A stretch of 34,509 nucleotides of DNA from a virus, in IMG/VR virus record IMGVR_UViG_3300045988_143498, positions 1-34,509 of that record, one strand, 5' to 3'. The notes below the pieces were generated by a model, which saw nothing but the letters and a program-made list of their open reading frames with translations, was not told where the DNA came from and searched no databases. Numbering within the stretch: the first letter of the stretch is position 1; every line of letters starts with the position of its first letter. Position numbers and translations under genes: made by a program. This document shows positions 531 to 34,509 of this stretch, in pieces.

Positions 531-1040
531 ATGGCTGATAAAATCGTTTTAAATAAAACCAAACTAGCAAGGAATTATGGATTAAATCGTGAAACAGTCA
601 TTAAATATGCTAAAAAGTGTATTAAAGACGAGAAAAACATTTCCAAGAAAGAATATGACGCTTTATTAGAAATGTGTACGAAGCTCAAACAGTCTAAAGA
701 GAACAAACTAAACTTTGAAGAACAAGTTCAAGAAATTCACAGCGACGCTAAAATTGAATTTTCCAACGATAAATCGTCCATATCAGAGTTGTTGGCTCAA
801 GAAAGGACTGATTATAATTATTTTCTTAAATGTTTGGAAGTTGACAAAAAAAAGGTTGAAATGGCTAACAAACTTGATTGGGATAATGACAACAGCAAAG
901 ATACCGCCCTAATTATCTCGACTTATAAGAGAGAATTAAGAGAAGATAAAAAAACACTACTTAATATAGGCGCTAGAATTAATGAGTATGAAGAAAAGTT
1001 GGCTTTAGTCGGTGAAGAAGAAGACAACCCGTTCGACTAA
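531..1040 (+). CDS. terS: Putative terminase small subunit
   Basis: 169 aa, immediately upstream of and overlapping terL. It has an N-terminal HTH-like segment (KTKLARNYGLNRETVIKYAKK), a coiled-coil-like centre, and the RBS AAAGGAG. Confidence 0.55.
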   Translation: MADKIVLNKTKLARNYGLNRETVIKYAKKCIKDEKNISKKEYDALLEMCTKLKQSKENKLNFEEQVQEIHSDAKIEFSNDKSSISELLAQERTDYNYFLKCLEVDKKKVEMANKLDWDNDNSKDTALIISTYKRELREDKKTLLNIGARINEYEEKLALVGEEEDNPFD

Positions 1041-2970
1041 TGACTTTTTTAAGTTCATTGAAGATGTTGAAAAGCGCCCAGATGAGTATTCAGATAAAAT
1101 CGTTAAACAAGTAGCACTTCAAAGGAAGATGTTAAAAAAATATGATTTTATCGAAGAAAAAGGTAAAAAGTGTGTTGATTGGATAGAAAAATACTGTTAT
1201 TTGACCGAGGGTGAAAAGGCAGGAAGTCGAGTAAAACTCATGTTATGGCAAAAGTGGATAATTTATTCCATTTTTTGTTTTTATGGTGATATCGAAACCG
1301 AGATTTTTGATGAGAATGGCGAATATTTGGGAATTGGCAAGAAATATCAAAGAATTGTCAATGATGTATTAATCGTTATCGGTAGTGGTAATTCAAAAAC
1401 TACTTTTATAGCCTTTGTGGTTGCTTATGTAATGTATAGCAACTGTTTACCAAGCCCAAAGGTGTATATAGGTTCAAATGCCTACAAGCAATCTAAAATT
1501 TGCTTTGATGTAGTCAAAAAAGTAATTGAACGTAGCCCTGTTTTGTCTCAATATGCAAAGATTAGACAAACAATCGGTGAAATCGAGATACCACAAACAA
1601 ATGCCAAAGTAATTGCAATGTCTTCTCAAGGCGATAATTACGAAGGTATTATTCCAGCTTTGCTTATTATTGATGAAATCCACGCAATGCCTACAAACAC
1701 TTATGCAAGCAATTTGAGAAAGTCTACAAAAAGAAGTGACAAGCTGATTATTGAATTAACCACACAGGGAATTTGTAGAGGTGGGTATTTAGATGAGCGA
1801 TTAGAACTAGCCAACAGCTTATTAAATGAAGAAAGCCCACAAAGTGATGATAAAAAGTTCTTTGCAATATTTGAACAAAAGAACGAGGAAGAAGTCTTTA
1901 AAGCGTTTGAAACAAACAACATAAAGATTTTACGAAAAGCTAACCCAAGTTTAGGTGTTGCAGTTAGTGTCGAAGAATTAAAAGACAAAATAAAGGCTAT
2001 GATTAATGACCCTAAACAAAAGGTCACCACGCTTACTAAAAACTTCAATATCCCACAAAACCCTGTTACTTCTTACTTTAGTGAGATTGAATGTAGAACA
2101 AAGCCATTTAATGAAGATATCTTCTATGGAGCGCCTATATTTTTAGGGCTTGATATGGCTTATACAAGAAATCCTAGTAATGACCTTACTTGTTTGAAAA
2201 TGCTTATGGTCAATCCTTTTACTGGAGAAGAATATAGCAAAGATTTTTACTTTTTACCTAGATGGTATGAAGAAGAAACCAAAAACAAGGATGAGATTGA
2301 AATTATTAAAAAAGATATGCTTATCGAAAAGTCAAAAGTTGATACAAACATCCTTTATAACAAAAGACAAAAAAAATATGGCTATGAAATGTACGCTAAA
2401 AGAGGTGATTTAGTTGTTTTAGATGAAGACTTAAGGCAAGAAATGAGCAAATGTTTTGGTCAAGAAGTATTTTTTGATATGACAGGCATAACAGAAGATT
2501 TTATACTTTTATTCATTACCTATTTGGAAAAAAAGTACAAATGGATATTGTGTAAGTTTGGTTTAGACCCAAACAAGGCTTCTAAAATTAGTTCAGTTAG
2601 TGAAAGGGCAATACGTTCACTTGATACTAAAAATCCTGTTATTCAATTTAGAATGGAAAATAAAAAGATAAGTAACCCTATTATCGTAGCTACAAAGGAT
2701 ATAAGAAGTCAAAGAAAGGTTTATAACAATAACCGTTTGACCGAGTTACATTTTGCAAATGCACAAGCAAAGGAAGACCAATTTGGAAGTATTACCTTTG
2801 TAAATCCTAAATATGCTAGAAAAGATGGGGTTATAGCGGAACTATCTGCAAGAAGTGCTTACAATGTCTTTACAACTAACAAAGACACAGGAGAAGCAAA
2901 CACAGAGTTTCTTAAGAATTGGTGGAAAGCAAATGAGGTGAGAATTAATGGGTTACTCGAAAGAACTTAA
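1012..2970 (+). CDS. terL: Terminase large subunit
   Basis: 652 aa with a Walker A-like motif (VIGSGNSKT) and a Walker B-like motif (LLIIDEIH). It sits upstream of the portal gene. Confidence 0.9.
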   Translation: MKKKTTRSTNDFFKFIEDVEKRPDEYSDKIVKQVALQRKMLKKYDFIEEKGKKCVDWIEKYCYLTEGEKAGSRVKLMLWQKWIIYSIFCFYGDIETEIFDENGEYLGIGKKYQRIVNDVLIVIGSGNSKTTFIAFVVAYVMYSNCLPSPKVYIGSNAYKQSKICFDVVKKVIERSPVLSQYAKIRQTIGEIEIPQTNAKVIAMSSQGDNYEGIIPALLIIDEIHAMPTNTYASNLRKSTKRSDKLIIELTTQGICRGGYLDERLELANSLLNEESPQSDDKKFFAIFEQKNEEEVFKAFETNNIKILRKANPSLGVAVSVEELKDKIKAMINDPKQKVTTLTKNFNIPQNPVTSYFSEIECRTKPFNEDIFYGAPIFLGLDMAYTRNPSNDLTCLKMLMVNPFTGEEYSKDFYFLPRWYEEETKNKDEIEIIKKDMLIEKSKVDTNILYNKRQKKYGYEMYAKRGDLVVLDEDLRQEMSKCFGQEVFFDMTGITEDFILLFITYLEKKYKWILCKFGLDPNKASKISSVSERAIRSLDTKNPVIQFRMENKKISNPIIVATKDIRSQRKVYNNNRLTELHFANAQAKEDQFGSITFVNPKYARKDGVIAELSARSAYNVFTTNKDTGEANTEFLKNWWKANEVRINGLLERT

Positions 2971-18793: not shown

Positions 18794-18818
18794 GGGGGAT
18801 TTATTCCCCCTGTTTTTT
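18794..18818. terminator. Bidirectional terminator between the lysis genes and the minus-strand operon
   Basis: GGGGGA (18794-99), 5-nt loop, TCCCCC (18805-10), with T6 downstream and an A/T run upstream. It overlaps the 3' end of CDS 18801..18992. Confidence 0.7.
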
Positions 18819-18992
18819 AATGTCTTCTCTAATTAAATTCAAGATATAACTTGATACTGATTTTTGTTTGTTTAGGTGTTCTATTACATCTACATCACTT
18901 TTTGGTATTAATGCAGTAACACGCTTATAAGTCTTTTTCATGAAATCAGCGTTATATTTTGCAAAATCGAAGTAATCATCTTTATTAGTCAT
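18801..18992 (-). CDS. Ribbon-helix-helix (CopG/Arc-like) DNA-binding protein
   Basis: YKRVTALIPKSDVDVIEHLNKQKSVSSYILNLIREDI fits the beta-strand / helix / helix RHH pattern. It is the last gene of the operon and a paralog of CDS 32784..32954. Confidence 0.65.
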   Translation of the reverse strand: MTNKDDYFDFAKYNADFMKKTYKRVTALIPKSDVDVIEHLNKQKSVSSYILNLIREDIKKQGE

Positions 18993-19654: not shown

Positions 19655-19676
19655 TTGTTTATTTTCCTTTTCCTTT

Positions 19677-19910
19677 TTATTTTTTTAATTGTTCAACTAT
19701 TTTGTCAAAATCTTTATTATTTGTAGTGTGTTCATAGATATGTCTTAAGACTTCAAAGTTCTTGCCATTATCTCTAATCTCACATTCCAACAAGTCTTTG
19801 TTTACTTTAACTTCGTCAATTAGATAATTTATTATTCTATCTAATAGTTTTTGTTCTCGCAAATATTCCCGTTTAAGAAAATGTAAATAATCTTCATCAC
19901 GTTCAAGCAT
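19677..19910 (-). CDS. Hypothetical protein (77 aa), first gene of the minus-strand moron operon
   Basis: Strong RBS GGAAGGAGG, located directly downstream of a consensus promoter. Confidence 0.5.
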   Translation of the reverse strand: MLERDEDYLHFLKREYLREQKLLDRIINYLIDEVKVNKDLLECEIRDNGKNFEVLRHIYEHTTNNKDFDKIVEQLKK

Positions 19911-19937
19911 TTTGGTTACCTCCTTCCTATTACACTT

Positions 19938-19963
19938 ATTATTATAATGATTATTATAATAAT
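19938..19963. promoter_or_regulatory. 11-bp inverted repeat operator candidate overlapping the promoter spacer and -10
   Basis: ATTATTATAAT, 4-nt centre, ATTATAATAAT. The palindrome arms are perfect. Confidence 0.55.
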
Positions 19964-19969
19964 GTCAAG
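19941..19969 (-). promoter_or_regulatory. Consensus sigma-70-type promoter for operon 19910..18801
   Basis: On the minus strand: TTGACA (19969-19964), 17-nt spacer, TATAAT (19946-19941). Confidence 0.7.
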
Positions 19970-19994
19970 TCTTTTGAATAAATTTGTGTTAAAA

Positions 19995-20015
19995 TAAGGT
20001 CATTTATAAGGTCAC
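19995..20015 (+). repeat. attP arm-type repeat pair 1 (TAAGGTCA x2, 12-bp period)
   Basis: TAAGGTCAT at 19995-20003 and TAAGGTCAC at 20007-20015. Confidence 0.55.
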
Positions 20016-20177
20016 AAGATTTTAAAAGTAAAGAAAAAGCCCATAAATAGGGCATTTTAGATACTATGGTGCCGACACAACAGATTGAAGAGAATGCAAT
20101 ATTTCGTTCTATAATGTGTTAAATCATCCCATTTTATCGCATTTTGTAACATTTCATTTTATTTCGTTTTGAAAATT

Positions 20178-20198
20178 TAAGGTCACAAATAAGGTCAC
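20178..20198 (+). repeat. attP arm-type repeat pair 2 (TAAGGTCAC x2, 12-bp period)
   Basis: TAAGGTCAC at 20178-20186 and 20190-20198, in the same orientation as pair 1 and just downstream of the integrase 3' end. Confidence 0.55.
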
Positions 20199-20258
20199 GG
20201 ATATGTTAAAATAAATATGGTTAAAATTCATTTATATACCTCCCTTCTTGAACACGCA

Positions 20259-21281
20259 CTATTGCGTGTTTTTGATTTTATCTATCATATCAATAACTGT
20301 TTTTCCTTCATCATCCAGTACATGAATATAATTTTCAATTGTAGTCGATATAGAGCTATGCCCTAGCCTTTTTGATACCGTGGCTATATCAACACCCTTT
20401 GAGAGCAATAAAGACCCGTGAGAATGCCTTAAACTGTGTATAGTGATGTTTTTATTAATATTGGCTTGCTTCAAGCAGTTCTTTAAATGTCTTCTTAATG
20501 TTTCATTGCTTAAAGGAGTATCATCACCAAACAAATATACACCTTGCCTTTGAGCCAATGGAACTAACAAATTATAAGTATCATCATCAAGAGCGACTTT
20601 CTTTATAAGGCTAGAAGTTTTAGTGCCGACTTTAACAGAGCTTTCAGTTAACCTCATAGTACGCTTTATTACTAACATATGGTCGTTCAAGTCTTCTTTA
20701 TACAAAGCCCTTAATTCACCTCTTCTACATCCCGTCCAATATGCAGTATAAAAGAACGCATATATAATAGGGTTCTTCTCAAATTCAATCATCTTATTAA
20801 ACTCTTCTAATGTGATAACTTCTTTCTCTTGTTTCTCGTTTGGGTATAGTTTTATCACTGTTGAGATATTTTTGATGTCATAAACCTCATAAGCATAGTT
20901 GTAGACCGCTTTAACGTGTCCTAGTATGCGATTTTTAGTTGTGGGGTGTAAATACTCGTTTTTTTGAAATTCGTTTCTAAAATAGGTTAAATTAGCTTTG
21001 GTGATGTTTTCTAGTTTCTTATCTTTGAAAGGAATAAATCGCTCCATATAAGATAAACGATTATTTTTTTCTTCTTGTGAGCAACTTAAACCCTCCAACC
21101 ACTCTTTAAACATATCCTTAAAGGTGATAGGTGACTTTACCTTTGATACCTCTAACTCAAATCTTTTTGCACTAGCTTTATCAAGGAAACCCCTTTTGGT
21201 GGTTGATACCAACTTGCCTGCGTTATTCTTCTGATAGTACTTAACATAATAAGTACCTCTTTTCTTATCTTTGCAAATCAT
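20259..21281 (-). CDS. int: Tyrosine integrase (phage integrase family)
   Basis: 340 aa with an N-terminal SAM-like/arm-binding region. Catalytic motifs: TGCRRGEL, HSLRHSHGS, LGHSSISTTIENYIH. Confidence 0.92.
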   Translation of the reverse strand: MICKDKKRGTYYVKYYQKNNAGKLVSTTKRGFLDKASAKRFELEVSKVKSPITFKDMFKEWLEGLSCSQEEKNNRLSYMERFIPFKDKKLENITKANLTYFRNEFQKNEYLHPTTKNRILGHVKAVYNYAYEVYDIKNISTVIKLYPNEKQEKEVITLEEFNKMIEFEKNPIIYAFFYTAYWTGCRRGELRALYKEDLNDHMLVIKRTMRLTESSVKVGTKTSSLIKKVALDDDTYNLLVPLAQRQGVYLFGDDTPLSNETLRRHLKNCLKQANINKNITIHSLRHSHGSLLLSKGVDIATVSKRLGHSSISTTIENYIHVLDDEGKTVIDMIDKIKNTQ

Positions 21282-22553: not shown

Positions 22554-22699
22554 TGTTAGTAATTGTAATTTTAACAACATTACTAATGTATTGGGGCTTA
22601 TTTTCAGAGCCAACAGTTGTATTAGTATTTTCAATACCAACAGTCTTATGTGAATTAATAATTAACTATTTTATTGAGAAGGAGGAAAAACATGTGTAA
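22553..22699 (+). CDS. Small hydrophobic ORF (48 aa)
   Basis: TAATG coupling on both sides. By my translation: MLVIVILTTLLMYWGLFSEPTVVLVFSIPTVLCELIINYFIEKEEKHV. Not in the ORF track. Confidence 0.35.
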   Translation: MLVIVILTTLLMYWGLFSEPTVVLVFSIPTVLCELIINYFIEKEEKHV

Positions 22700-23337
22700 T
22701 GAGTAGAAGGGTTAAAACATCCGCAGACCAAAACGATAAGACTTTACCTATTAAAGATATTAAACAACAAAACAATATGTTGTACTACTGGTTAAACAAA
22801 AAGAATAAAGCCAATGGCTACAATGCGTATATTGCTGATAGAAATTACTTGTTTATCTTTTTAGGATTAAACACCGCCTTTAGAGCAGAAGACTTGTTGC
22901 AATTAAGACCCAAAGATTTAGATGGTGGCTATGTTCGTATCAAAGAAAACAAAACAGGCAAAACACAAAACTTTAAGATGAATAACCAAGTCTATAAAGA
23001 AGTACAAGAATACTGCAAAAGAAATGACATAGGTGATTATGACTATCTGTTTCAATCAAGAAGAAAGGATGGTGTTATTAGAGCAATATCAAGACAACAA
23101 GCATGGAGAATGGTTAAGAATACTGGAAAGGAGGTAGGTATCAAATATAAGTTTGGTGTTCATAGTCTTCGTAAAACATTTGGTTACAACTTTATAAGCA
23201 AAGGCGGGAACGTATTAACACTAATGAAAATGTATAATCATAGTTCACCAGCTATCACTTTACTCTATGTAATGTGGGGTACTGATGATGTAGAAAATGA
23301 ACGTAATAATGTGTTTAACGGAGTAGGCTCTTTGTGA
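22699..23337 (+). CDS. Short tyrosine recombinase (catalytic domain only, 212 aa)
   Basis: LNTAFRAEDLLQL (Arg I), VHSLRKTFG (HxxR) and YNHSSPAITLLYV (His, Tyr). It has no long N-terminal core- or arm-binding domain. Confidence 0.8.
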   Translation: MSRRVKTSADQNDKTLPIKDIKQQNNMLYYWLNKKNKANGYNAYIADRNYLFIFLGLNTAFRAEDLLQLRPKDLDGGYVRIKENKTGKTQNFKMNNQVYKEVQEYCKRNDIGDYDYLFQSRRKDGVIRAISRQQAWRMVKNTGKEVGIKYKFGVHSLRKTFGYNFISKGGNVLTLMKMYNHSSPAITLLYVMWGTDDVENERNNVFNGVGSL

Positions 23338-23899: not shown

Positions 23900-24559
23900 G
23901 TGGTCAAAGTGGCTAATAAACGAATGTTCACAATGAAGATAGTTGACAGTGACGCTTTTCTAGAAATGCCACTATCAACACAATGTTTATATTTTCACTT
24001 AAACATGAGGGCTGATGATGATGGCTTTATTGGAAATCCAAAACGTATATGTAAGTTAGTTGGTTGTAATGATGATGACTTAAAGTTATTAATTGCTAAA
24101 AGGTTTGTGCTTGTATTTGATAACGGAGTTATTGTTATCAAGCACTGGAGAATGCACAATACTATCCAAAAAGACAGATATGTACCAACAACATACAGTG
24201 ATGAGTTTAAGCAATTAGGCATAAAAGACAATAAATCTTACACCTTATCACCTATGGAAACAAAATGTATACAAAATGTTTCCACAGATATAGATATAGA
24301 TAAAGATATTAATAAAGATATAGAGAATAAGATTATAGATTTATTATCATCATCAAAAGATATTTTTATAAGTATCAAATTGGAAAATGAGTACGAAGAA
24401 ACTTTGAAGATGATGATTAGAGCAGGACAAATCACAAAAAAAATACCATCACAAGGAAGATTGGAAGACTTGATGAAAGAAATGATTTTTGATAGACAGA
24501 ATGTTTGTAACAAACAGGGTTATTTGATTGAATGCTTTAGAAACGAGAGAGAACAATGA
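23900..24559 (+). CDS. Putative replication initiator / replisome organizer
   Basis: The N-terminal domain (FTMKIVDSDAFLEMPLSTQCLYFHLNMRADDDGFIGNP ... IKHWRMHNTIQKDR) resembles phage replication organizer proteins. An AT-rich repeat tract lies inside the gene. Confidence 0.6.
   Translation: MVKVANKRMFTMKIVDSDAFLEMPLSTQCLYFHLNMRADDDGFIGNPKRICKLVGCNDDDLKLLIAKRFVLVFDNGVIVIKHWRMHNTIQKDRYVPTTYSDEFKQLGIKDNKSYTLSPMETKCIQNVSTDIDIDKDINKDIENKIIDLLSSSKDIFISIKLENEYEETLKMMIRAGQITKKIPSQGRLEDLMKEMIFDRQNVCNKQGYLIECFRNEREQ
24261..24340 (+). repeat. Internal direct-repeat tract (candidate origin of replication)
   Basis: CAAAATGT x2 (24261-68, 24272-79), then GATATAGATATAGATAAAGATATTAATAAAGATATAGAGAATAAGATTATAGAT (24287-24340) with AGATATAGA x3. 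Confidence 0.45.
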
Positions 24560-25466: not shown

Positions 25467-25874
25467 ATGTTAAATTATGATGAACACAAAGAGGAAATTG
25501 ACAAGATATTTAAAGATGGCAAATCATTATGCGAAATAAGCCAAACAATTTTAAAAGAGCATTGTTTAGGTTGTAATTCTAATAAAGAAAAGTACGCTAA
25601 TTGCAAAATTAAAACACTTGAATGGTTATGCCAAGAGCATATAGAACCAGTATTAAGTGATGAAGCTAAAACTTATTTAAAAACAATTATAGAGCCTGTT
25701 GAAGCTGTGGCAATTCGTAAAATATCAGATTATAACATTGGAACTTATAAATTAGATTTTTTTATCAAAGATGGTTATATCACTATTAAATTCAAAACAG
25801 GCACTAAATTATATGAATATTTTGAAGACATGGAATTAAACAAAGCATATACCTTAAAGGAGTTAGGATTATGA
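25467..25874 (+). CDS. Cys-rich paralog family member P1 (135 aa)
   Basis: Shares LEWL..EHIEPVLSDEAKTYLKTIIEP and the C-terminal MELNKAYTLKELGL with P2-P5. Its N-terminus is more diverged. Confidence 0.6.
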   Translation: MLNYDEHKEEIDKIFKDGKSLCEISQTILKEHCLGCNSNKEKYANCKIKTLEWLCQEHIEPVLSDEAKTYLKTIIEPVEAVAIRKISDYNIGTYKLDFFIKDGYITIKFKTGTKLYEYFEDMELNKAYTLKELGL

Positions 25875-26275
25875 AAAATATCGAAAAATATAAAGATGAA
25901 ATAAAAAGCAAAATCAAAGAAAAAAGTACATTAGACTGTGCGATTGCAGATTTAAGGGGGAATGCTTGTGATGAATGCTTTCGATGTACCGACTGCGGTT
26001 TAAAATCGTTAGATTGGCTACTTGAAGAATATAAAAAACCCCTTTTGACTGATGAAGGCATTAAATTTTTAAAAGAACATATAAAACAAAGTGGTGCGAT
26101 AGCTGTATACATTAAAATCACAAAAAAAGTAGCTAATTATTATGAATATCGTTTGGAAATTCATTTAGAGACAGGCTTGATATCGATACCGTTTGTGGAA
26201 AAAAGCAATCTATACGAAATGTTTAAAAACATGGAAATTGGTGTAAGTTATGCACCAGAGGATTTAGGATTATGA
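25871..26275 (+). CDS. Cys-rich paralog family member P2 (134 aa)
   Basis: N-terminal MKNIEKYKDEIK, then CxxCxxCxxC, LDWLLEEYKKPLLTDEG, and a C-terminal ...EDLGL. Confidence 0.6.
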   Translation: MKNIEKYKDEIKSKIKEKSTLDCAIADLRGNACDECFRCTDCGLKSLDWLLEEYKKPLLTDEGIKFLKEHIKQSGAIAVYIKITKKVANYYEYRLEIHLETGLISIPFVEKSNLYEMFKNMEIGVSYAPEDLGL

Positions 26276-26568: not shown

Positions 26569-26964
26569 ATGAAGAATATCGAAAAATATAAAGATGAAAT
26601 AAAAGCCGAGCTTGAAAAAGATAAGACTTTAGGATGTGTGGTTAATAAATTAATGGGGAATACATGTGATGACTATTCAAAATGTAATGATTGCTATTTA
26701 AAAGTATTAGATTGGCTATTACAAGAATGCAAAGAGCCTATATTGGATGATATAGAAAAAGAATATTTAAGTGCAGTGATTAAGCCATTTAGAAAAAGAA
26801 TTAAATCAATCAAAAAAGCTTATTATTCAGGCAATTCAGCGTACATTAGTATAGCAATGAATGAATGTGAGCATATTTTCTTACCATATTTCAATTTAAA
26901 TAGTGGAATGTATAAAAGAATGGAAATTAACAAAGATTATACTTTAAAGGAGCTAGGACTATGA
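26569..26964 (+). CDS. Cys-rich paralog family member P3 (131 aa)
   Basis: MKNIEKYKDEIK ... LDWLLQECKEPILDD ... MEINKDYTLKELGL. Confidence 0.6.
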   Translation: MKNIEKYKDEIKAELEKDKTLGCVVNKLMGNTCDDYSKCNDCYLKVLDWLLQECKEPILDDIEKEYLSAVIKPFRKRIKSIKKAYYSGNSAYISIAMNECEHIFLPYFNLNSGMYKRMEINKDYTLKELGL

Positions 26965-27389
26965 AAAATATCGAAAAATATAAAAATGAAATACTTAAAT
27001 ATGCTGGTTACCAACATTCATTAATGTGCTTAATTTATGAAAACATTATGAAAAAAAATGACTGCACTGGTTATTGTTCCAAATGTAAAAGGGAAACGAT
27101 TGAATGGTTAACTAGTGAATACAAAGAGCCTATTCTAACCGATAAAGAAAAAAGATACTTAAAGAATGTGATTGAACCTAAAAAGGATGATATTACATGG
27201 ATTAGAAAATGGTGCTTTTATAAAGGCACAGAAAGCGAATATACTACCGTTACTGTTTATGCAAAACATCCAGCCTTTACATCACCTAATTCGTTATGGG
27301 TATTACTAGATTTTATAGTAACTGAAGAAATGCCATTTAAAGGCATGGAACTAGAAAAAGCATACAGTCTTGAGGAGTTAGGGCTATGA
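26961..27389 (+). CDS. Cys-rich paralog family member P4 (142 aa)
   Basis: MKNIEKYKNEI ... IEWLTSEYKEPILTD ... MELEKAYSLEELGL. Confidence 0.6.
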   Translation: MKNIEKYKNEILKYAGYQHSLMCLIYENIMKKNDCTGYCSKCKRETIEWLTSEYKEPILTDKEKRYLKNVIEPKKDDITWIRKWCFYKGTESEYTTVTVYAKHPAFTSPNSLWVLLDFIVTEEMPFKGMELEKAYSLEELGL

Positions 27390-27796
27390 AGAATATTGAA
27401 AAATATGAAGAAGTAATTAAAAAACAAATTGCTGAATTTAGAGATATACCTTGTATAGCTAAAGAGTTAAAAGATGGCGGTTGCTGTGAATGTCGAAATT
27501 GTGTGACTTGCAGTATGGAAATGTTACATTGGCTATCACAAGAGTATAAAGCGCCTGTTTTAACCGAAGAAGGCAAAGCCTATTTATCAAACTTATTAAA
27601 GCCATATGGTTTAGGTACTTGTGCATTTCAATTCAACTTATCAGAAGTTGTTAAAAACGATACATACAAATTAACTATTGCTGATGAGTATGGAATAATC
27701 ATAAATCTAGCTATTAGACAAGATAGTGAAATGCAAGAACTATTTAGAAAAATGCAATTCAACAAGGTATATGCAGTGAAGGAGTTAGGGCTATGA
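27386..27796 (+). CDS. Cys-rich paralog family member P5 (136 aa)
   Basis: MKNIEKYEEVIK ... CCECRNCVTC ... LHWLSQEYKAPVLTEEG ... FNKVYAVKELGL. Confidence 0.6.
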   Translation: MKNIEKYEEVIKKQIAEFRDIPCIAKELKDGGCCECRNCVTCSMEMLHWLSQEYKAPVLTEEGKAYLSNLLKPYGLGTCAFQFNLSEVVKNDTYKLTIADEYGIIINLAIRQDSEMQELFRKMQFNKVYAVKELGL

Positions 27797-29731: not shown

Positions 29732-29976
29732 AATATAAAGTTCATTTTGATTTAATATTTGATGATGAGGTAGAAGCCGAGAATGAATATGAAGCATTTA
29801 AGTTAGCTTTTCATAGTGCGATTGTAGGCGGTGCATGGAACTATCGTGTTGAGGAACTTGAGGACAATGAAACTGATGATGGAATTAAATTCTATTTTGA
29901 CACCGAGAGTGAAGGATATAAAGAAATTGTTAGACAAGTGGAAAATTTGAGTGAAAGTAGAGGTTCTAAATGCTAA
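29728..29976 (+). CDS. Hypothetical acidic protein (82 aa)
   Basis: ATGA coupling. No recognised motif. Confidence 0.5.
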   Translation: MKYKVHFDLIFDDEVEAENEYEAFKLAFHSAIVGGAWNYRVEELEDNETDDGIKFYFDTESEGYKEIVRQVENLSESRGSKC

Positions 29977-30443
29977 ATAATGTAAATCTAATTGGTCGAG
30001 TGACTAAAGAAATTGAATTAAGAAAAACACAATCAAATAAAAGTGTAGTCAAGTTTACGTTGGCGGTTGATGATGGCAAGGATGGGCAAGGGAATAGTAG
30101 AACACAATTCATTGATTGCCAAGCATGGGAAGGGTTGGCTGAAACTATTCAAAAGTATGTGTTAAAAGGTGATATGGTAAACATCAACGGTAAGCTAGTC
30201 AATAACAACTATGAAAGCAACGGAGTTAAGTATTATTCTTATCTAGTATTGGCAAGTGGGATGACTTTACTACCTAACAAGAGACTTAATGAACAAAAGC
30301 CACAGCAAGTGGCTAATCAAGTAACTAATCAATACGAACCACAATACAATGAACCACAATACCAGCAACAGTCAATTAGAAGTGATGGAAGAAATGTTAC
30401 AGGCGGTGTAACCTTTGAGCCTGATGATTTACCGTTCTATTAA
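29970..30443 (+). CDS. ssb: Single-stranded DNA-binding protein
   Basis: OB-fold N-terminus (NNVNLIGRVTKEIELRKT..KFTLAV ... FIDCQAWEGLAE), a Q/P-rich linker and the acidic tip DDLPFY. Confidence 0.9.
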   Translation: MLNNVNLIGRVTKEIELRKTQSNKSVVKFTLAVDDGKDGQGNSRTQFIDCQAWEGLAETIQKYVLKGDMVNINGKLVNNNYESNGVKYYSYLVLASGMTLLPNKRLNEQKPQQVANQVTNQYEPQYNEPQYQQQSIRSDGRNVTGGVTFEPDDLPFY

Positions 30444-31342: not shown

Positions 31343-31618
31343 ATGACAACAGTTGAAACAGTAATTCAAAAAGCAATTGAAAGATACGGAGCTGATTTGC
31401 AAAAGCAAGTAGCCATTGAAGAAATGGCGGAGCTTACAAAGGAAATTTGCAAGGACTTTAGAGGAAAAGGAAATAGAGAACACATTCTTGAAGAAATAGC
31501 TGATGTAAAAATCATGCTATCTCAATTATTAATTATGTATGACATAAAAGTTTGGGAATTGAATGATGTAATTGTTAGTAAATTAACTAGATTAGAAGAA
31601 AGATTGAAAGGTGAATAA
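31343..31618 (+). CDS. MazG-like nucleotide pyrophosphohydrolase
   Basis: IEEMAELTKEI and ILEEIADVKIML match the all-alpha NTP-PPase EExxE...ExxD pattern. 91 aa. Confidence 0.65.
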   Translation: MTTVETVIQKAIERYGADLQKQVAIEEMAELTKEICKDFRGKGNREHILEEIADVKIMLSQLLIMYDIKVWELNDVIVSKLTRLEERLKGE

Positions 31619-31620
31619 AC

Positions 31621-31815
31621 ATGGATATCGTAGGTATATTATTACTAGTCTTGATTGTGATTATGTTTGTTAACTTTGTTGGCACTTTAAAAGAAATGGA
31701 AGAGGTCATTGATGAAATTATTGAAAAACACAACACCACGGTTAACATGGTTAATACGTTAAATAATAGAATTAAAGATGTAGCAGAGGAGCAAAATGAA
31801 CGAAAAAGAAGTTGA
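31621..31815 (+). CDS. Small membrane-anchored protein (64 aa)
   Basis: N-terminal TM helix (IVGILLLVLIVIMFVNFVG). Confidence 0.45.
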   Translation: MDIVGILLLVLIVIMFVNFVGTLKEMEEVIDEIIEKHNTTVNMVNTLNNRIKDVAEEQNERKRS

Positions 31816-32212
31816 AGCCTTTAAAAATAGAATAAGAAATTACAACTTTCATATCGAACAAATAGAACTAATCAATGATGAAATGAACATAGTGTTCTAT
31901 GACTTAACAGGGGTTAAGGGTGCAAGCTATGACTATCACGCACCATGTACAAATCAAGCCATTAAGAACGAACATAGAACGGATTTATTGGAAAAGCTAG
32001 AAGAACTAAAGGAAAAGAAAAAAGCCCACCAAGAAGAACTAGACAAGCTCAATGCCATGTTAAATCAATTGAACAAGACCGATAGAGAATTAGTAAAAAA
32101 GAAGTTAATAAATGGCTTTACTTATGATGAATTATCTAATCAATCATACATGGCAAGAACCACTATTCAATATCGCATTGATAAAGCTATTAAAGATATC
32201 AGATACTTATAG
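31796..32212 (+). CDS. Sigma-70 region-4-like / ArpU-RinA-type late gene regulator
   Basis: The C-terminus (DRELVKKKLINGFTYDELSNQSYMARTTIQYRIDKAIKDI) resembles a sigma region-4 HTH. It is the last gene of the early region, before the packaging genes. Confidence 0.6.
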   Translation: MNEKEVEAFKNRIRNYNFHIEQIELINDEMNIVFYDLTGVKGASYDYHAPCTNQAIKNEHRTDLLEKLEELKEKKKAHQEELDKLNAMLNQLNKTDRELVKKKLINGFTYDELSNQSYMARTTIQYRIDKAIKDIRYL

Positions 32213-32241
32213 GGATGTTAAAATTTGACATCCCTTTTTTT
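32212..32241 (+). terminator. Rho-independent terminator of the early operon
   Basis: GGGATGT (32212-18) pairs with ACATCCC (32228-34) and is followed by T7. The right arm is also the first copy of the GACATCCC array. Confidence 0.7.
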
Positions 32242-32431
32242 ATAGAAAAAAAATTGACATCCCTATTTTTAAAAAAGCCATCCCTTTTTTTGACATCCCC
32301 TAAATTAAAAAGCCATCCCTAAAATTTGACATCCCTTTTTTAAGAGACATCTTTTAAAAATTTTGACATCCCCTAAAATAATTTGACATCGCTTAAAAAA
32401 ATGACATCCCTAAAAATAAAATGACATCCCC
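32225..32431 (+). repeat. Array A: ~11 same-strand copies of (TT)GACATCCC in pure A/T spacers
   Basis: By my reading, copies start near 32225, 32254, 32277, 32290, 32312, 32326, 32346, 32363, 32383, 32401 and 32421. Seven are exact GACATCCC, two are GCCATCCC and two are degenerate. Spacing is 13-29 bp, mostly ~20. Confidence 0.9.
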
Positions 32432-32487
32432 TAAAAGCATGAATTAAAACTAAAAAAAGCCAAGCAACAATGCAAGGCTTTAAAACA

Positions 32488-32517
32488 TTTAGAAACCTAA
32501 ACAATAACTTTAGAAAC
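32488..32517 (+). repeat. TTTAGAAAC x2 (21-bp period) between the two arrays
   Basis: Copies at 32488-32496 and 32509-32517. Confidence 0.8.
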
Positions 32518-32525
32518 TCAAAAAA

Positions 32526-32796
32526 GTAAATTAGTAAGTCTAGTAAGTAACTTTAGTAAGTACAGTAACTTGAAGTAACCTGAAGTAACTCATGCAGTAA
32601 GTGGTGCAGTAACTCGCAGTAACTCATGCAGTAAGTGGCAGTAAACTGCAGTAACTCAAAACTGCAGTAACTGAAAACTGCAGTAACTGCAGTAACCGAG
32701 AAAATTGCGGTAACTCAAAAAGTCTGTAACTGCAGTAACTGAAAATTGCAGTAACTCAAAAGTGCGGTAACTTAAAAAGTAACTTACTTTTGTAAG
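32526..32796 (+). repeat. Array B: ~24 same-strand copies of GTAA(C/G/A), mostly within (TGC)AGTAACT
   Basis: By my count there are 24 GTAAS/GTAAA cores in 271 bp. Six are exact TGCAGTAACT (605, 647, 663, 679, 731, 747; offsets within 32xxx). The period is 9-18 bp. The array runs into the 3' end of the RHH gene 32784..32954. Confidence 0.9.
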
Positions 32797-32954
32797 TCCT
32801 TTTTAATCAGTTCTACAATATAACCGCTTTTAGATTTAACCGTGTTCAGCTTCTCAAGTACCTTGGTATCGGTTTTTGGAACAACTACACGAATAATCGT
32901 GTAGTGTTCCTTATTAAAGTTGTTGATATAATCTTGTCTTTTTTTGTTAGTCAT
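32784..32954 (-). CDS. Ribbon-helix-helix DNA-binding protein (56 aa), paralog of CDS 18801..18992
   Basis: By my translation: MTNKKRQDYINNFNKEHYTIIRVVVPKTDTKVLEKLNTVKSKSGYIVELIKKDLQK. RBS AGGTAGGTG. Not in the ORF track. Confidence 0.55.
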   Translation of the reverse strand: MTNKKRQDYINNFNKEHYTIIRVVVPKTDTKVLEKLNTVKSKSGYIVELIKKDLQK

Positions 32955-32968
32955 TTAACACCTACCTT

Positions 32969-33163
32969 CTAGAGCGCAATCATGTTGCATTCTTTTAATA
33001 AGTCTTCTTTTCCATTTGTACAAATTCGATAGACTTTAATTGTTGCGTTCTCTATATCAACATTGTCTTTCATTTCTTTGGTGTAATATTTTAGTGCTTC
33101 TTCAAAAGAAACAAACGTTTCATAATATTTGTAATCGTTTATAGTTGTTTCAACTTTATACAT
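32969..33163 (-). CDS. Hypothetical protein (64 aa)
   Basis: I chose the start at the ATG with RBS AAGGGGG; the track start is 33193. Confidence 0.5.
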   Translation of the reverse strand: MYKVETTINDYKYYETFVSFEEALKYYTKEMKDNVDIENATIKVYRICTNGKEDLLKECNMIAL

Positions 33164-33174
33164 ATTTAGCCCCC

Positions 33175-33768
33175 TTAAAAACTTACACCGCAACCAATAG
33201 CGTATATTTGTGTGCTTTCTTCTTGTTCTTCAATTTCATCGTACTTTGCATTGCTCCACTCTTCAGCCTGTTCGTATGCATTCCATTGGCTGTTATTTGT
33301 GAACTCTTGTTCAATGTAGCTAGTTGTTACTTTGCCGTTCTCATGTTCTTCAATTTTAACCCACGCAGTATAAGTACCGATTGAACAACCTATATAATAA
33401 CCACTTTGTTCAATGTCGCAATAGTCCCAATAGTCGTTTGGGTTTGTTTTAACTTTTTTCAAGAAGTCCGCTTCATTTGTTGCTTCTTCTTCTTCTATAG
33501 CTTTTTCAACATCAAACTCATTAACTTCAATGCCAAATTCAGTCACTAACAAGTAATTAATGCCGTGGTCTGAAAGTTCCCAGTAAGTGGTTGTAAATTC
33601 TTCCAAAGCGTTTAGTGCTTCTTCTTCAGATTCAAATACTTGAAGGGTCTTTCTATCGCTATCATAATAAATAGTATCACCTTGTTTATAGGCTTCATCT
33701 GGATAGTTTAAAGAGTGCTTCACTCTTGGGTACTCGTGCGTCCCTTTGTTTAAATAATAAAGTTTCAT
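33175..33768 (-). CDS. Strongly acidic hypothetical protein (197 aa)
   Basis: By my count ~43 D/E versus ~14 K/R, including EEEEATNEAD and DEIEEQEE tracts. It is the first gene of a minus-strand operon. Confidence 0.6.
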   Translation of the reverse strand: MKLYYLNKGTHEYPRVKHSLNYPDEAYKQGDTIYYDSDRKTLQVFESEEEALNALEEFTTTYWELSDHGINYLLVTEFGIEVNEFDVEKAIEEEEATNEADFLKKVKTNPNDYWDYCDIEQSGYYIGCSIGTYTAWVKIEEHENGKVTTSYIEQEFTNNSQWNAYEQAEEWSNAKYDEIEEQEESTQIYAIGCGVSF

Positions 33769-33795
33769 TTGTTTATTTTCCTTTCCTATGGCTTA

Positions 33796-33824
33796 ATGAT
33801 ATACCTATATTAGCCAATATACAA
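33796..33824 (-). promoter_or_regulatory. Promoter candidate for operon 33768..32784, with an embedded inverted repeat
   Basis: On the minus strand: TTGTAT (33824-19), 17-nt spacer, TATCAT (33801-33796). The IR TATATT-4 nt-AATATA lies at 33806-33821. Confidence 0.45.
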
Positions 33825-33892
33825 GTACTTTTTATAACTTTCTTTATTTTTTTGCTTTTATTAAAAAAGTTTAAAATATTTGTAAATATGTA

Positions 33893-33921
33893 TTGACTAA
33901 TGCAATAGTATTTGCTAATAT
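33893..33921 (+). promoter_or_regulatory. Promoter candidate for CDS 33959..34507
   Basis: TTGACT (33893-98), 17-nt spacer, TAATAT (33916-21). The track ORF start at 33893 is the TTG of this -35 box. Confidence 0.6.
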
Positions 33922-33958
33922 CATAGTGTACAAAAGGTACAGGAGGAAAATAAACAAA

Positions 33959-34507
33959 ATGAAATTTACAAAAAACAACGAATATAATTCACTAGAAATC
34001 AGCTTTGAAGAAAAGCCAAGCGAAAAAGTAAGAGAAATATTGAAAGCTAACCATTTCAGATGGCACAGCGTTAAAAAAGTGTGGTATGGCTACAAAACCC
34101 AAGAAGAGATTGAAAAAGCTCTAAATGGCTTAGATGCAACAAAAGAAGTTAAACCAGAACAAAACAACCACAGTTTGAAAGTTGGTGATATATTAAGCAG
34201 CTCATGGGGTTATGACCAAACAAACAACGATTTTTACAAAGTTGTTAAAACCAGTAAAAGTTGCGTATGGCTTATAGAAGTATCACTTCCAGTCAAAGAG
34301 AGAAAGGGCATTTCAGGTATGTCGGAGGATAGAAAGTATGATATCGAAAATGCTAAACCTTGTAGCAACGATGAAACACCATTCAGAAGAACCGTATACA
34401 ACTACAGCGCCAACAAAGAACCTAAATGTGACTCCGTTTCAATCTCTGACTATGAAAGAGCACACAAATACAACGGTGAATGGTTGTATTGTAGCTGGTA
34501 TGCTTAA
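33959..34507 (+). CDS. Hypothetical protein (182 aa)
   Basis: Starts at ATG 33959 after the RBS AGGAGG. The N-terminal segment is LEISFEEKPSEKVREILKANHFRWHSVKKVWYGY. Its 3' end is duplicated at window positions 1-53. Confidence 0.6.
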   Translation: MKFTKNNEYNSLEISFEEKPSEKVREILKANHFRWHSVKKVWYGYKTQEEIEKALNGLDATKEVKPEQNNHSLKVGDILSSSWGYDQTNNDFYKVVKTSKSCVWLIEVSLPVKERKGISGMSEDRKYDIENAKPCSNDETPFRRTVYNYSANKEPKCDSVSISDYERAHKYNGEWLYCSWYA

Positions 34508-34509
34508 AT
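34455..34509 (+). repeat. Terminal overlap copy 2 (identical to 1..55)
   Basis: Exact 55-nt identity with the window start. Confidence 0.95.

Follow-up and report, generated by a model that had tools for sequence, protein, structure and literature searches.

The late transcriptional regulator (Ltr) systems of Gram-positive temperate phages, among them RinA (80alpha and phi29-type staphylococcal phages), LtrC (phi55), ArpU (phiFL2A), the Ltr of Phi13 and Alt of TP901-1, share a layout in which a small late-regulator gene ends the early operon and its stop codon or terminator is directly followed by short direct repeats on the coding strand. Quiles-Puchalt et al. 2013 studied RinA, LtrC and ArpU (PMC3753634); the repeats were necessary and sufficient for regulator binding, and family II of these regulators (LtrA) was defined by its likeness to sigma-70 region 4 (PMC3753634). 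The Ltr of phage Phi13 and Alt of TP901-1 behave alike (PMC13123087). Known Ltr blocks hold 2–4 repeats of ~7 nt within ~60 bp, located at −107 to −32 of the terS promoter. Here we analyse a non-coding gap of 590 bp (positions 32212–32800) in the genome of an uncultured gut phage, IMG/VR record IMGVR_UViG_3300045988_143498, whose full 34,509 nucleotides are referred to as the window. The gap contains two densely packed arrays of short repeats, each running in a single direction. Judged by its layout, the closest precedent for this gap appears to be the Ltr-binding repeats directly following the ltr stop codon, a comparison that was absent from the preliminary description of this DNA.

Our preferred reading, to which we assign a probability of roughly 0.3, is that the gap may be a selectively kept, cis-acting docking platform for proteins, in which array A would consist of expanded late-regulator repeats and array B would serve a second small protein. 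The features on which this reading draws are as follows (coordinates refer to the window; RHH, ribbon-helix-helix; AF2, AlphaFold2).

31796–32212, plus strand: 138-aa sigma-region-4-like regulator, final gene of the early operon
32211–32241, plus strand: intrinsic terminator of the early operon (terminator scan; 11-pair stem, then a run of seven T)
32212–32800: gap with the two arrays
32225–32436, plus strand: array A, 11 same-strand units (pattern scan, spacing and logo analysis)
32437–32524, plus strand: central spacer, 26% GC, with a hairpin and two TTTAGAAAC words
32525–32797, plus strand: array B, 23–24 same-strand units (pattern scan, spacing and logo analysis)
32775–32808, both strands: weak bidirectional terminator-like hairpin, AAAAAGTAACTTAC-TTTT-GTAAGTCCTTTTT (sequence and RNA folds of both strands)
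32784–32954, minus strand: 56-aa RHH-compatible protein, last gene of a variable minus-strand cassette (AF2 model)
18801–18992, minus strand: second, 63-aa paralogue of the 56-aa protein, last gene of the integrase-side minus-strand operon (lysogeny block; hmmsearch with the family profile, E=3.8e-16)

All 11 units of array A are on the plus strand, and the first begins at 32227, 15 nt past the stop codon of the regulator gene (32210–32212). Their consensus is (T)TGACATCCC(Y), with the variants GCCATCCC (twice), GACATCGC and GACATCTT, and the units are separated by A/T-tract spacers, the array as a whole having a GC content of 29%; a logo built from 82 A units across the relatives likewise gave TGACATCCC(Y) within A/T. 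The core holds TTGACA, the element that sigma region 4 reads. With at most one mismatch, GACATCCC matched 20 times in the window compared with 7.9 ± 2.7 times in shuffled sequences, none of 100 shuffles reaching 20, and 10 of the 20 matches were on the plus strand inside 32227–32430. Together with a degenerate eleventh unit, GACATCTT at 32346, these bear out the approximately 11 copies counted in the preliminary description. The distances between units (29, 21, 15, 20, 16, 18, 19, 20, 18 and 20 bp) have a mean of 19.6 bp and a spectral peak at 18–18.5 bp, i.e., the two helical turns claimed earlier are approached but not matched exactly, and the sites should therefore spiral round the helix. 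The terminator scan also agreed with the claim that the first unit doubles as the right arm of the early-operon terminator, whose arms are AGGGATGT and ACATCCCT followed by T7; this terminator (32211–32241) is kept in all relatives, including the most divergent one, contig L260.

Array B is built from a different unit with the consensus tGCAGTAACT (153 B units across the relatives) and the cores GTAAC, GTAAG and GTAAA. Within 270 bp, between 32526 and 32796, there are 24 GTAA[ACG] cores on one strand and a single copy on the opposite strand, with a background of 3.1 per kb. The longer word CAGTAAC matched 16 times in the window, where 3.8 ± 2.1 were expected, and nine of these matches lie at 32563–32755, all on the plus strand. 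Spacings range from 8 to 18 bp (plus one of 4) with a median near 10, being 8–12 bp in the left part of the array and 16 bp in the right part, and thus the count of about 24 cores at roughly one helical turn was reproduced. The last units overlap the stop codon of the convergent 56-aa gene, as previously noted, and form the bidirectional hairpin that closes the gap. Five CTGCAG palindromes are embedded in array B. Only one occurs elsewhere in the genome, where composition predicts ~2.6, so we see no clear avoidance of PstI sites.

The central spacer contains a conserved hairpin at 32455–32480 (AAAGCC-AA-GCA-ACAA-TGC-AA-GGCTTT) and two TTTAGAAAC copies at 32488 and 32509. The pair of repeats 21 bp apart reported earlier therefore exists, but the word itself is not enriched genome-wide (78 matches vs 67 expected). 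Since it grades into AACTTTAR 9-mers in the relatives, the pair looks like a degenerate left edge of array B.

We looked for a conserved open reading frame (ORF), a tRNA and an Rfam family in 32212–32800 and found none (no Rfam match at E≤1). With both arrays same-strand and enriched over shuffles or expectation, the earlier account of a non-coding gap with real unidirectional arrays stands. The gap is not CRISPR-like either, having units of 9–10 nt with A/T spacers instead of repeats of 24–48 nt with unique spacers. A word common to the gap and the 3′ end of the replisome organiser gene, TTAGAAAC, was not significant. A Chi-like role in end protection was set aside by reasoning only: the orientation would suit entry from the right end, but there are two different motifs, one of them C-rich, and regular A/T spacers.

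A comparative search for the repeat units in related phages found both arrays kept at the same locus in one IMG/VR contig (L056, identical with L239, L262 and L266) and about 20 Logan/ENA contigs, which derive from human-gut assemblies where a source is stated (e.g., Hadza samples). The close relatives share the order regulator gene, terminator, array A, hairpin spacer, array B and convergent 56/57-aa gene, while the remaining cassette genes differ (197+64 aa, 59+78+65+97 aa, or a helix-turn-helix (HTH) gene plus 197 aa). According to the logo counts, array A has 6–13 and array B 15–24 copies among the relatives, L260 being the exception for array B with six. Each relative retains at least six A and at least six B units, and unit variants keep their relative positions. 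In L260, whose regulator is 80% identical, 10 A units, the hairpin and about 6–10 B units are present, and its right flank has been replaced, with a 76-aa HTH gene in place of the 56-aa gene. Every contig with a regulator at least 80% identical, L260 included, has array A directly downstream. Since L260 keeps the arrays without the 56-aa gene, their linkage to the end of the early operon is no looser than that to the small gene.

Among six close relatives, the non-coding p-distance was 0.038–0.057 in alignable columns, compared with synonymous divergences (dS) of 0.07–0.34 in the regulator gene and 0.13–0.45 in the 56-aa gene. Non-coding substitutions were hence 2–8 times rarer than flanking synonymous changes in most comparisons. 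Against L260, array A and the hairpin block are 83–85% identical, vs 77% for the regulator gene overall and 57% at its third codon positions. The hairpin block is nearly invariant, with L250 and L260 identical at 32 of 32 positions. We take the region as functional because the non-coding constraint is consistent across comparisons and both arrays are kept in every relative. These comparisons indicate that the gap is a real, conserved and clade-specific cis element under purifying selection, with the caveats that the alignment of repeats can flatter identity and that phage mosaicism could have moved the segment recently. Outside this clade, loose DNA-pattern scans of IMG/VR returned mostly chance or coding repeats, with L056 as the only relative. 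When IMG/VR was scanned with a stricter pattern for array B, and JGI metagenomes with one for array A, the matches were unrelated coding tandem repeats only, and a relative by TerL (L264, 69% identical) is without the arrays.

The gene preceding the gap had been described as sigma-like, and the matches of its product agree with this. Sigma region 4 is the sole domain detectable in the 138-aa protein, which matched PHROG 36 (“transcriptional regulator”) with E=1.6e-9 and, below threshold, NCBIfam sigma70-ECF with E=1e-5. Its recognition helix reads ARTTIQYR, compared with ARNTIKYR in L260. An exhaustive HMMER search yielded 131 representatives of the regulator family with lengths of 130–145 aa, and some distant members come near the cutoff of TIGR01636 phage_rinA (31.5 vs 31.9 bits). 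A homologue with 41% identity (P0042) is located at the end of its early operon, ~0.6 kb upstream of the TerL and portal genes with two small ORFs between, which is the canonical position of a late transcriptional regulator. Judged from profile matches and gene position, the protein may thus be a distant regulator of the RinA/ArpU/LtrA type, an assignment that is consistent but sub-threshold.

On the other side of the gap, the 56-aa protein had been called an RHH protein. Modelled with AF2 from a 48-sequence alignment (predicted local distance difference test score, pLDDT, 93.9), it comprises a helix (residues 2–17), an extended segment (18–29) and two further helices (30–38 and 42–55); a model from a shallow alignment was poor (pLDDT 56). 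The modelled topology looks like one chain of an RHH dimer and is in this sense RHH-compatible, whereas neither Pfam nor a PDB sequence search nor Foldseek against PDB gave a match. The gene occupies the same position in all close relatives although the other cassette genes differ, and the family of its product numbers at least 136 small proteins without annotation. At four of five distant loci with Ltr-like genes (21–28% identity), a member of this family is convergent and located a few hundred bp downstream, namely on the minus strand of IMG/VR contigs with 43–45% GC (L268:3571–3783, L269:1994–2227, L270:3576–3773 and L271:2337–2534). In L271, about six TGTGTC[TC]A repeats separate the two genes; the other distant loci are without big arrays. 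This recurrent convergence suggests a functional pairing of the two proteins. Its repeated placement facing Ltr-like genes is a hint that late-gene control may involve a partner not recognised so far, supplied by this newly found family of RHH-compatible phage proteins. Plus-strand paralogues were also seen (L269:1664–1849 and L271:1908–2129). The window's own second paralogue (18801–18992) is a candidate second binder, and the convergent late/lysis operon ends 8 bp from its stop codon.

The docking reading would work as follows. In array A, the short direct repeats recognised by Ltr proteins (RinA, ArpU, LtrA and related families) would form an enlarged block, and the sigma-region-4-like C-terminal HTH of the regulator resembles that of Ltr family II (LtrA). 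With 11 sites rather than 2–4 and no late gene following, array A would mainly be a high-capacity site linked to the regulator's own gene. Two consequences can be envisaged: array A could buffer free regulator and so impose a threshold or delay on the late promoter near terS, or it could drive a short non-coding transcript across array B. Little read-through from the neighbouring genes is expected, since the gap lies between a forward terminator and a weak bidirectional hairpin. A second small protein that binds DNA would dock on array B; the adjacent RHH-like 56-aa protein or its paralogue is the candidate, with GCAGTAACT as the candidate target of an RHH-like dimer. RHH dimers typically polymerise on tandem subsites of 7–11 bp. 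We infer both binders and the titration or threshold effect; among the roles offered in the preliminary description, a titrating sink for the adjacent regulator appears to fit published Ltr biology best.

Several findings weigh against this interpretation. The match of the regulator to Pfam Sigma70_r4_2 (E=2.7e-4, 20.9 bits) is below the cutoff of 25.7, and its homologues at 47%, 41% and 21–28% identity are without a comparable array. Unlike the Ltr blocks described above, array A has 11 units of 9–10 nt over 208 bp, is not followed by a late gene, terS being 2.8 kb away behind a convergent cassette, and precedes a second, unrelated array of 23–24 units. A convincing conserved −10 element was not found after array A, three terminator-like hairpins (114–235) lie between the arrays and terS (531), and no GACATCC-like copy was found near the probable late promoter (~270–310), where the regulator must also act. 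As for array B, no repeat array accompanies the window's own second paralogue (18801–18992), and members of the RHH-like family occur in four other contexts without arrays. Words of the TTTTAAGAGAC and TTAAAGCC type, considered as a link between array A or the central hairpin and the region upstream of terS, are common (41 matches) and were matched or beaten by 8.7% of genome windows; the link was not significant.

The remaining genome bears on the alternatives. The first and last 55 bases of the window are identical (1–55 and 34455–34509), and therefore it is the assembly of a phage genome of 34,454 bp closed into a circle (k-mer overlap), with a GC content of 32%. The ORF at 33893–34507 terminates within this overlap. 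Among cultured phages, the best TerL match has only 25% identity and is to terminases of Clostridioides phages. Searches of the region against cultured phages and plasmids (blastn), of the regulator and the second RHH-like paralogue against cultured phages (tblastn), and of the regulator and TerL against GTDB genomes gave no match, and an integrase look-up found no host flank. The gene order is as follows.

~60–530, reached by wrapping round the ends: 470-bp non-coding stretch preceding terS
531–1040, plus strand: terS
1012–2970, plus strand: terL
~3.3–18.8 kb, plus strand: structural and lysis genes
20259–21281, minus strand: integrase, 340 aa
~22.7–32.2 kb, plus strand: early operon
22699–23337, plus strand: small tyrosine recombinase of the Xer/invertase type, 212 aa, near the start of the early operon
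23900–24559, plus strand: DnaD-like replisome organiser
29970–30443, plus strand: SSB
31343–31618, plus strand: MazG-like
32784–33768, minus strand: accessory cassette of three genes (56, 74 and 197 aa)
33960–34507, plus strand: gene with its own sigma-A-like promoter

Just upstream of terS, at about 360–440, a GC-rich block of 60 bp (ACCCCCCCGAGGGGTGAGGGCAGTATGTGCCACTGGGGGAACGGGGTGGGGGAC) stands out in this genome, and ATACGACAGT occurs twice behind it as a direct repeat at 469–504. All relatives keep this stretch irrespective of the cassette in front of it, and from sequence the block and the repeats probably represent cosN and the terminase-binding sites (cosB) of a cohesive-end (cos) site. 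A perfect 16-bp palindrome, TTCGTACGTGTACGAA at 170–185, lies between the cassette terminators and the probable late promoter, is kept in the relatives with a compensated central change (ACGT to CACG) and may be an operator. At the 3′ end of the integrase gene, 600 bp (19655–20258) are non-coding and contain tandem repeats (19936–19964 and 20126–20178; Tandem Repeats Finder, 19936–20178). This repeat-bearing gap is probably the phage attachment (attP) region with arm-type sites. Finally, an AT-rich cluster of six AGATAT hexamers (24286–24335) in the middle of the DnaD-like organiser gene is probably the origin, the position within this gene being that of the origin in TP901-1/r1t-type phages. 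With other cis sites thus accounted for elsewhere (the cos candidate at ~360–440, the inferred attP and the AGATAT cluster in the organiser gene), the docking reading of the gap gains support.

The main rival, which we regard as possible but unlikely, is a primary or secondary replication origin: two iteron-like arrays would flank an AT-rich unwinding region with a hairpin and be bound by a phage initiator or, in a host-initiator-dependent form, by a host initiator. Iteron origins (those of Staphylococcus aureus pathogenicity islands (SaPI) and other phage-inducible chromosomal islands (PICI), lambda ori, P4 ori1/crr and SPP1 oriL/oriR) similarly have same-strand short repeats together with an AT-rich spacer and bent DNA with A-tracts, located where the replication or early region ends. 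SaPI origins have short (6–8 bp) iterons flanking an AT-rich region, and P4 crr and SPP1 oriR are secondary copies of origin repeats remote from the initiator gene. The present gap likewise combines arrays of direct repeats with A/T tracts and with a spacer of 26% GC that contains a conserved hairpin. It is located at the end of the early (replication) operon and insulated from transcription by terminators on both sides, and purifying selection coexists with tolerated changes in copy number.

Unlike the known iteron origins, however, the gap has no cognate initiator or Rep gene adjacent to it, it has two arrays with different motifs, and the organiser gene holds an AT-rich repeat cluster of its own, AGATAT ×6. 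The spacer and array A (26% and 29% GC) are not among the 100-bp windows of lowest GC in the genome, to which 24200–24350 in the organiser gene belongs, and a similar array was not found on plasmids or other viral contigs. In L056, the N-terminal 147 aa of the organiser are replaced while the arrays are still 94% identical, and therefore the DNA-recognition domain of the organiser does not co-vary with the arrays. Together with the AGATAT cluster, this speaks against the gap as the primary origin, so that a secondary or host-initiator-dependent one is the more plausible form of this rival. The homology of this organiser resumes exactly at the AGATAT cluster, which suggests a recombination joint there. 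If the origin reading were true, this uncultured gut phage lineage would have an initiator-less, two-motif type of origin.

A more specialised idea, which we consider rather unlikely, takes both arrays as a dedicated decoy locus of dozens of high-affinity sites in physical linkage with the late-regulator gene, which would soak up the late regulator (array A) and the small RHH-like regulator (array B). Late transcription or lysogeny maintenance would then flip only above a protein threshold scaling with array copy number, and the copy-number variation among strains would act as a tunable timer. Such a decoy locus would be a kind of element not described in phages. So far, the evidence that tandem decoy sites titrate a factor comes mainly from synthetic arrays. 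If array A does consist of oversized late-regulator sites without a promoter, it would be a case of natural transcription-factor titration by tandem decoys in a viral developmental switch. Be it such a sink or an origin, the gap offers a compact, strongly conserved cis element with natural copy-number alleles that is easily testable.

In a more exotic variant, drawn by analogy, the arrays might mark the inner boundary of the first-entering 6–8% of the genome, as a pause site like the T5 injection-stop (iss) region behind a variable cassette of anti-defence type. The iss region is likewise a large untranslated, repeat-dense stretch at the inner edge of the first few percent of entering DNA. Under a lambda-like model with its presumed packaging polarity, 2.1–2.7 kb (6–8% of the genome) would separate the arrays from the end that is packaged last and injected first, the arrays being situated just past a variable gene cassette that has promoters of its own. 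Terminal repeats, the A1/A2 proteins and DnaA boxes within inverted repeats are found in T5 only, and unlike in T5, nothing suggests a two-step injection in this temperate cos-type siphovirus.

Alternatively, a filament of an array-bound protein (RHH-like or other) between the convergent early and accessory operons could act as a roadblock or insulator that stops read-through RNA polymerase or replication forks in one or both directions. The arrays lie exactly between two convergent 3′ ends, the RHH-like gene is fixed beside array B while the rest of the cassette varies, and the pairing of Ltr-like and convergent RHH-like genes recurs in L268–L271, with repeats in the L271 gap. Yet terminators already flank the arrays, simple bidirectional terminators suffice in relatives such as L269, L260, which has no RHH-like gene, retains array A and some of array B, and other members of the RHH-like family are without arrays. 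We regard the roadblock as improbable.

The gap could also produce a non-coding RNA (ncRNA) of ~350 nt as a transcript of its own, starting after array A, with the conserved hairpin at its 5′ end and ~23 GCAGUAAC motifs, ending at the bidirectional terminator and sequestering an RNA-binding factor like a sponge. Terminators delimit the unit, the hairpin at the putative 5′ end is conserved, a weak promoter-like ATGACA-18-TATAAA follows the last A unit in L239 and L250, and the fold has a z-score of −3.8. This score is explained, however, by the palindromic CTGCAG in the repeats and is similar on the other strand. Moreover, the −10 region is variable and without an invariant T6, Rfam gave no match, covariation was not found, the single hairpin change (in L256) breaks a pair, and the copy number of the array varies freely. 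We consider the ncRNA quite improbable.

It is even more doubtful that the arrays are a functionless product of slippage, by which the right arm of the terminator with its T-run, and a second short motif, were amplified where extra DNA is not selected against. Indeed, the array-A unit equals the descending terminator arm with a tract of T or A added, nearly identical genomes differ in copy number, and the arrays are confined to one narrow clade. On the other hand, non-coding changes are 2–8 times slower than those at flanking synonymous sites in most comparisons, L260 keeps 83–85% identity where adjacent third codon positions have 57%, unit variants hold their positions across relatives, and no relative falls below six A and six B units.

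The preliminary description also considered a partition site, i.e., a centromere-like or anchoring site for an episomal prophage, coated by an RHH protein in the style of omega, ParG or ParR, together with a host nucleoside triphosphatase (NTPase) or with none, as in the single-protein par system of pSK1. The RHH arrays known (omega heptads of pSM19035, ParG boxes of TP228, ParR iterons of R1/pSK41 and MetJ metboxes) resemble the present case in their many tandem 7–11-bp subsites and in an adjoining small protein with strand-helix-helix topology and a basic N-terminal extension, and the extra small tyrosine recombinase (22699–23337) could resolve multimers. Those sites, however, belong to promoters that precede the RHH gene, and they function either in partition, together with an NTPase, or by repressing initiation, whereas array B adjoins the RHH-like gene at its stop codon, on the 3′ side, and members of the family elsewhere have no arrays. 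PHROG and Pfam scans of the early and cassette genes found no ParA, ParM or TubZ, and Walker-A motifs are confined to the portal and a tail gene, in agreement with the earlier statement that no ParA/ParM-type ATPase or Rep protein is nearby. An integrase is present, with the candidate attP region adjoining, and no plasmid matched. We judge a centromere to be the least probable of these explanations. The packaging-recognition region proposed earlier was rejected, as the conserved GC-rich cos candidate with its ATACGACAGT repeats adjoins terS, and the arrays are 2.1–2.7 kb off with a variable cassette between. Thus, of the preliminary interpretation as a whole, the arrays and their regulator and RHH-like context hold, while packaging and centromere roles are not supported.

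Two observations concern other parts of the genome. Three paralogous early ORFs (25871–26275, 26961–27389 and 27386–27796; 134–142 aa) match PHROG 22292 (unknown function) through their N-terminal 70–80 residues and form a small tandem gene family. In addition, 32955–34507 and its equivalents (L239, L241, L243, L250, L256 and L260) separate the 56-aa gene from the cos region and constitute a gene-replacement hot spot, in which near-identical phages carry at least four different sets of genes; divergent sigma-A-like promoters are located at ~33770–33960. If packaging proceeds from cos towards terS, the cassette in this hot spot would be part of the first DNA to enter the cell.

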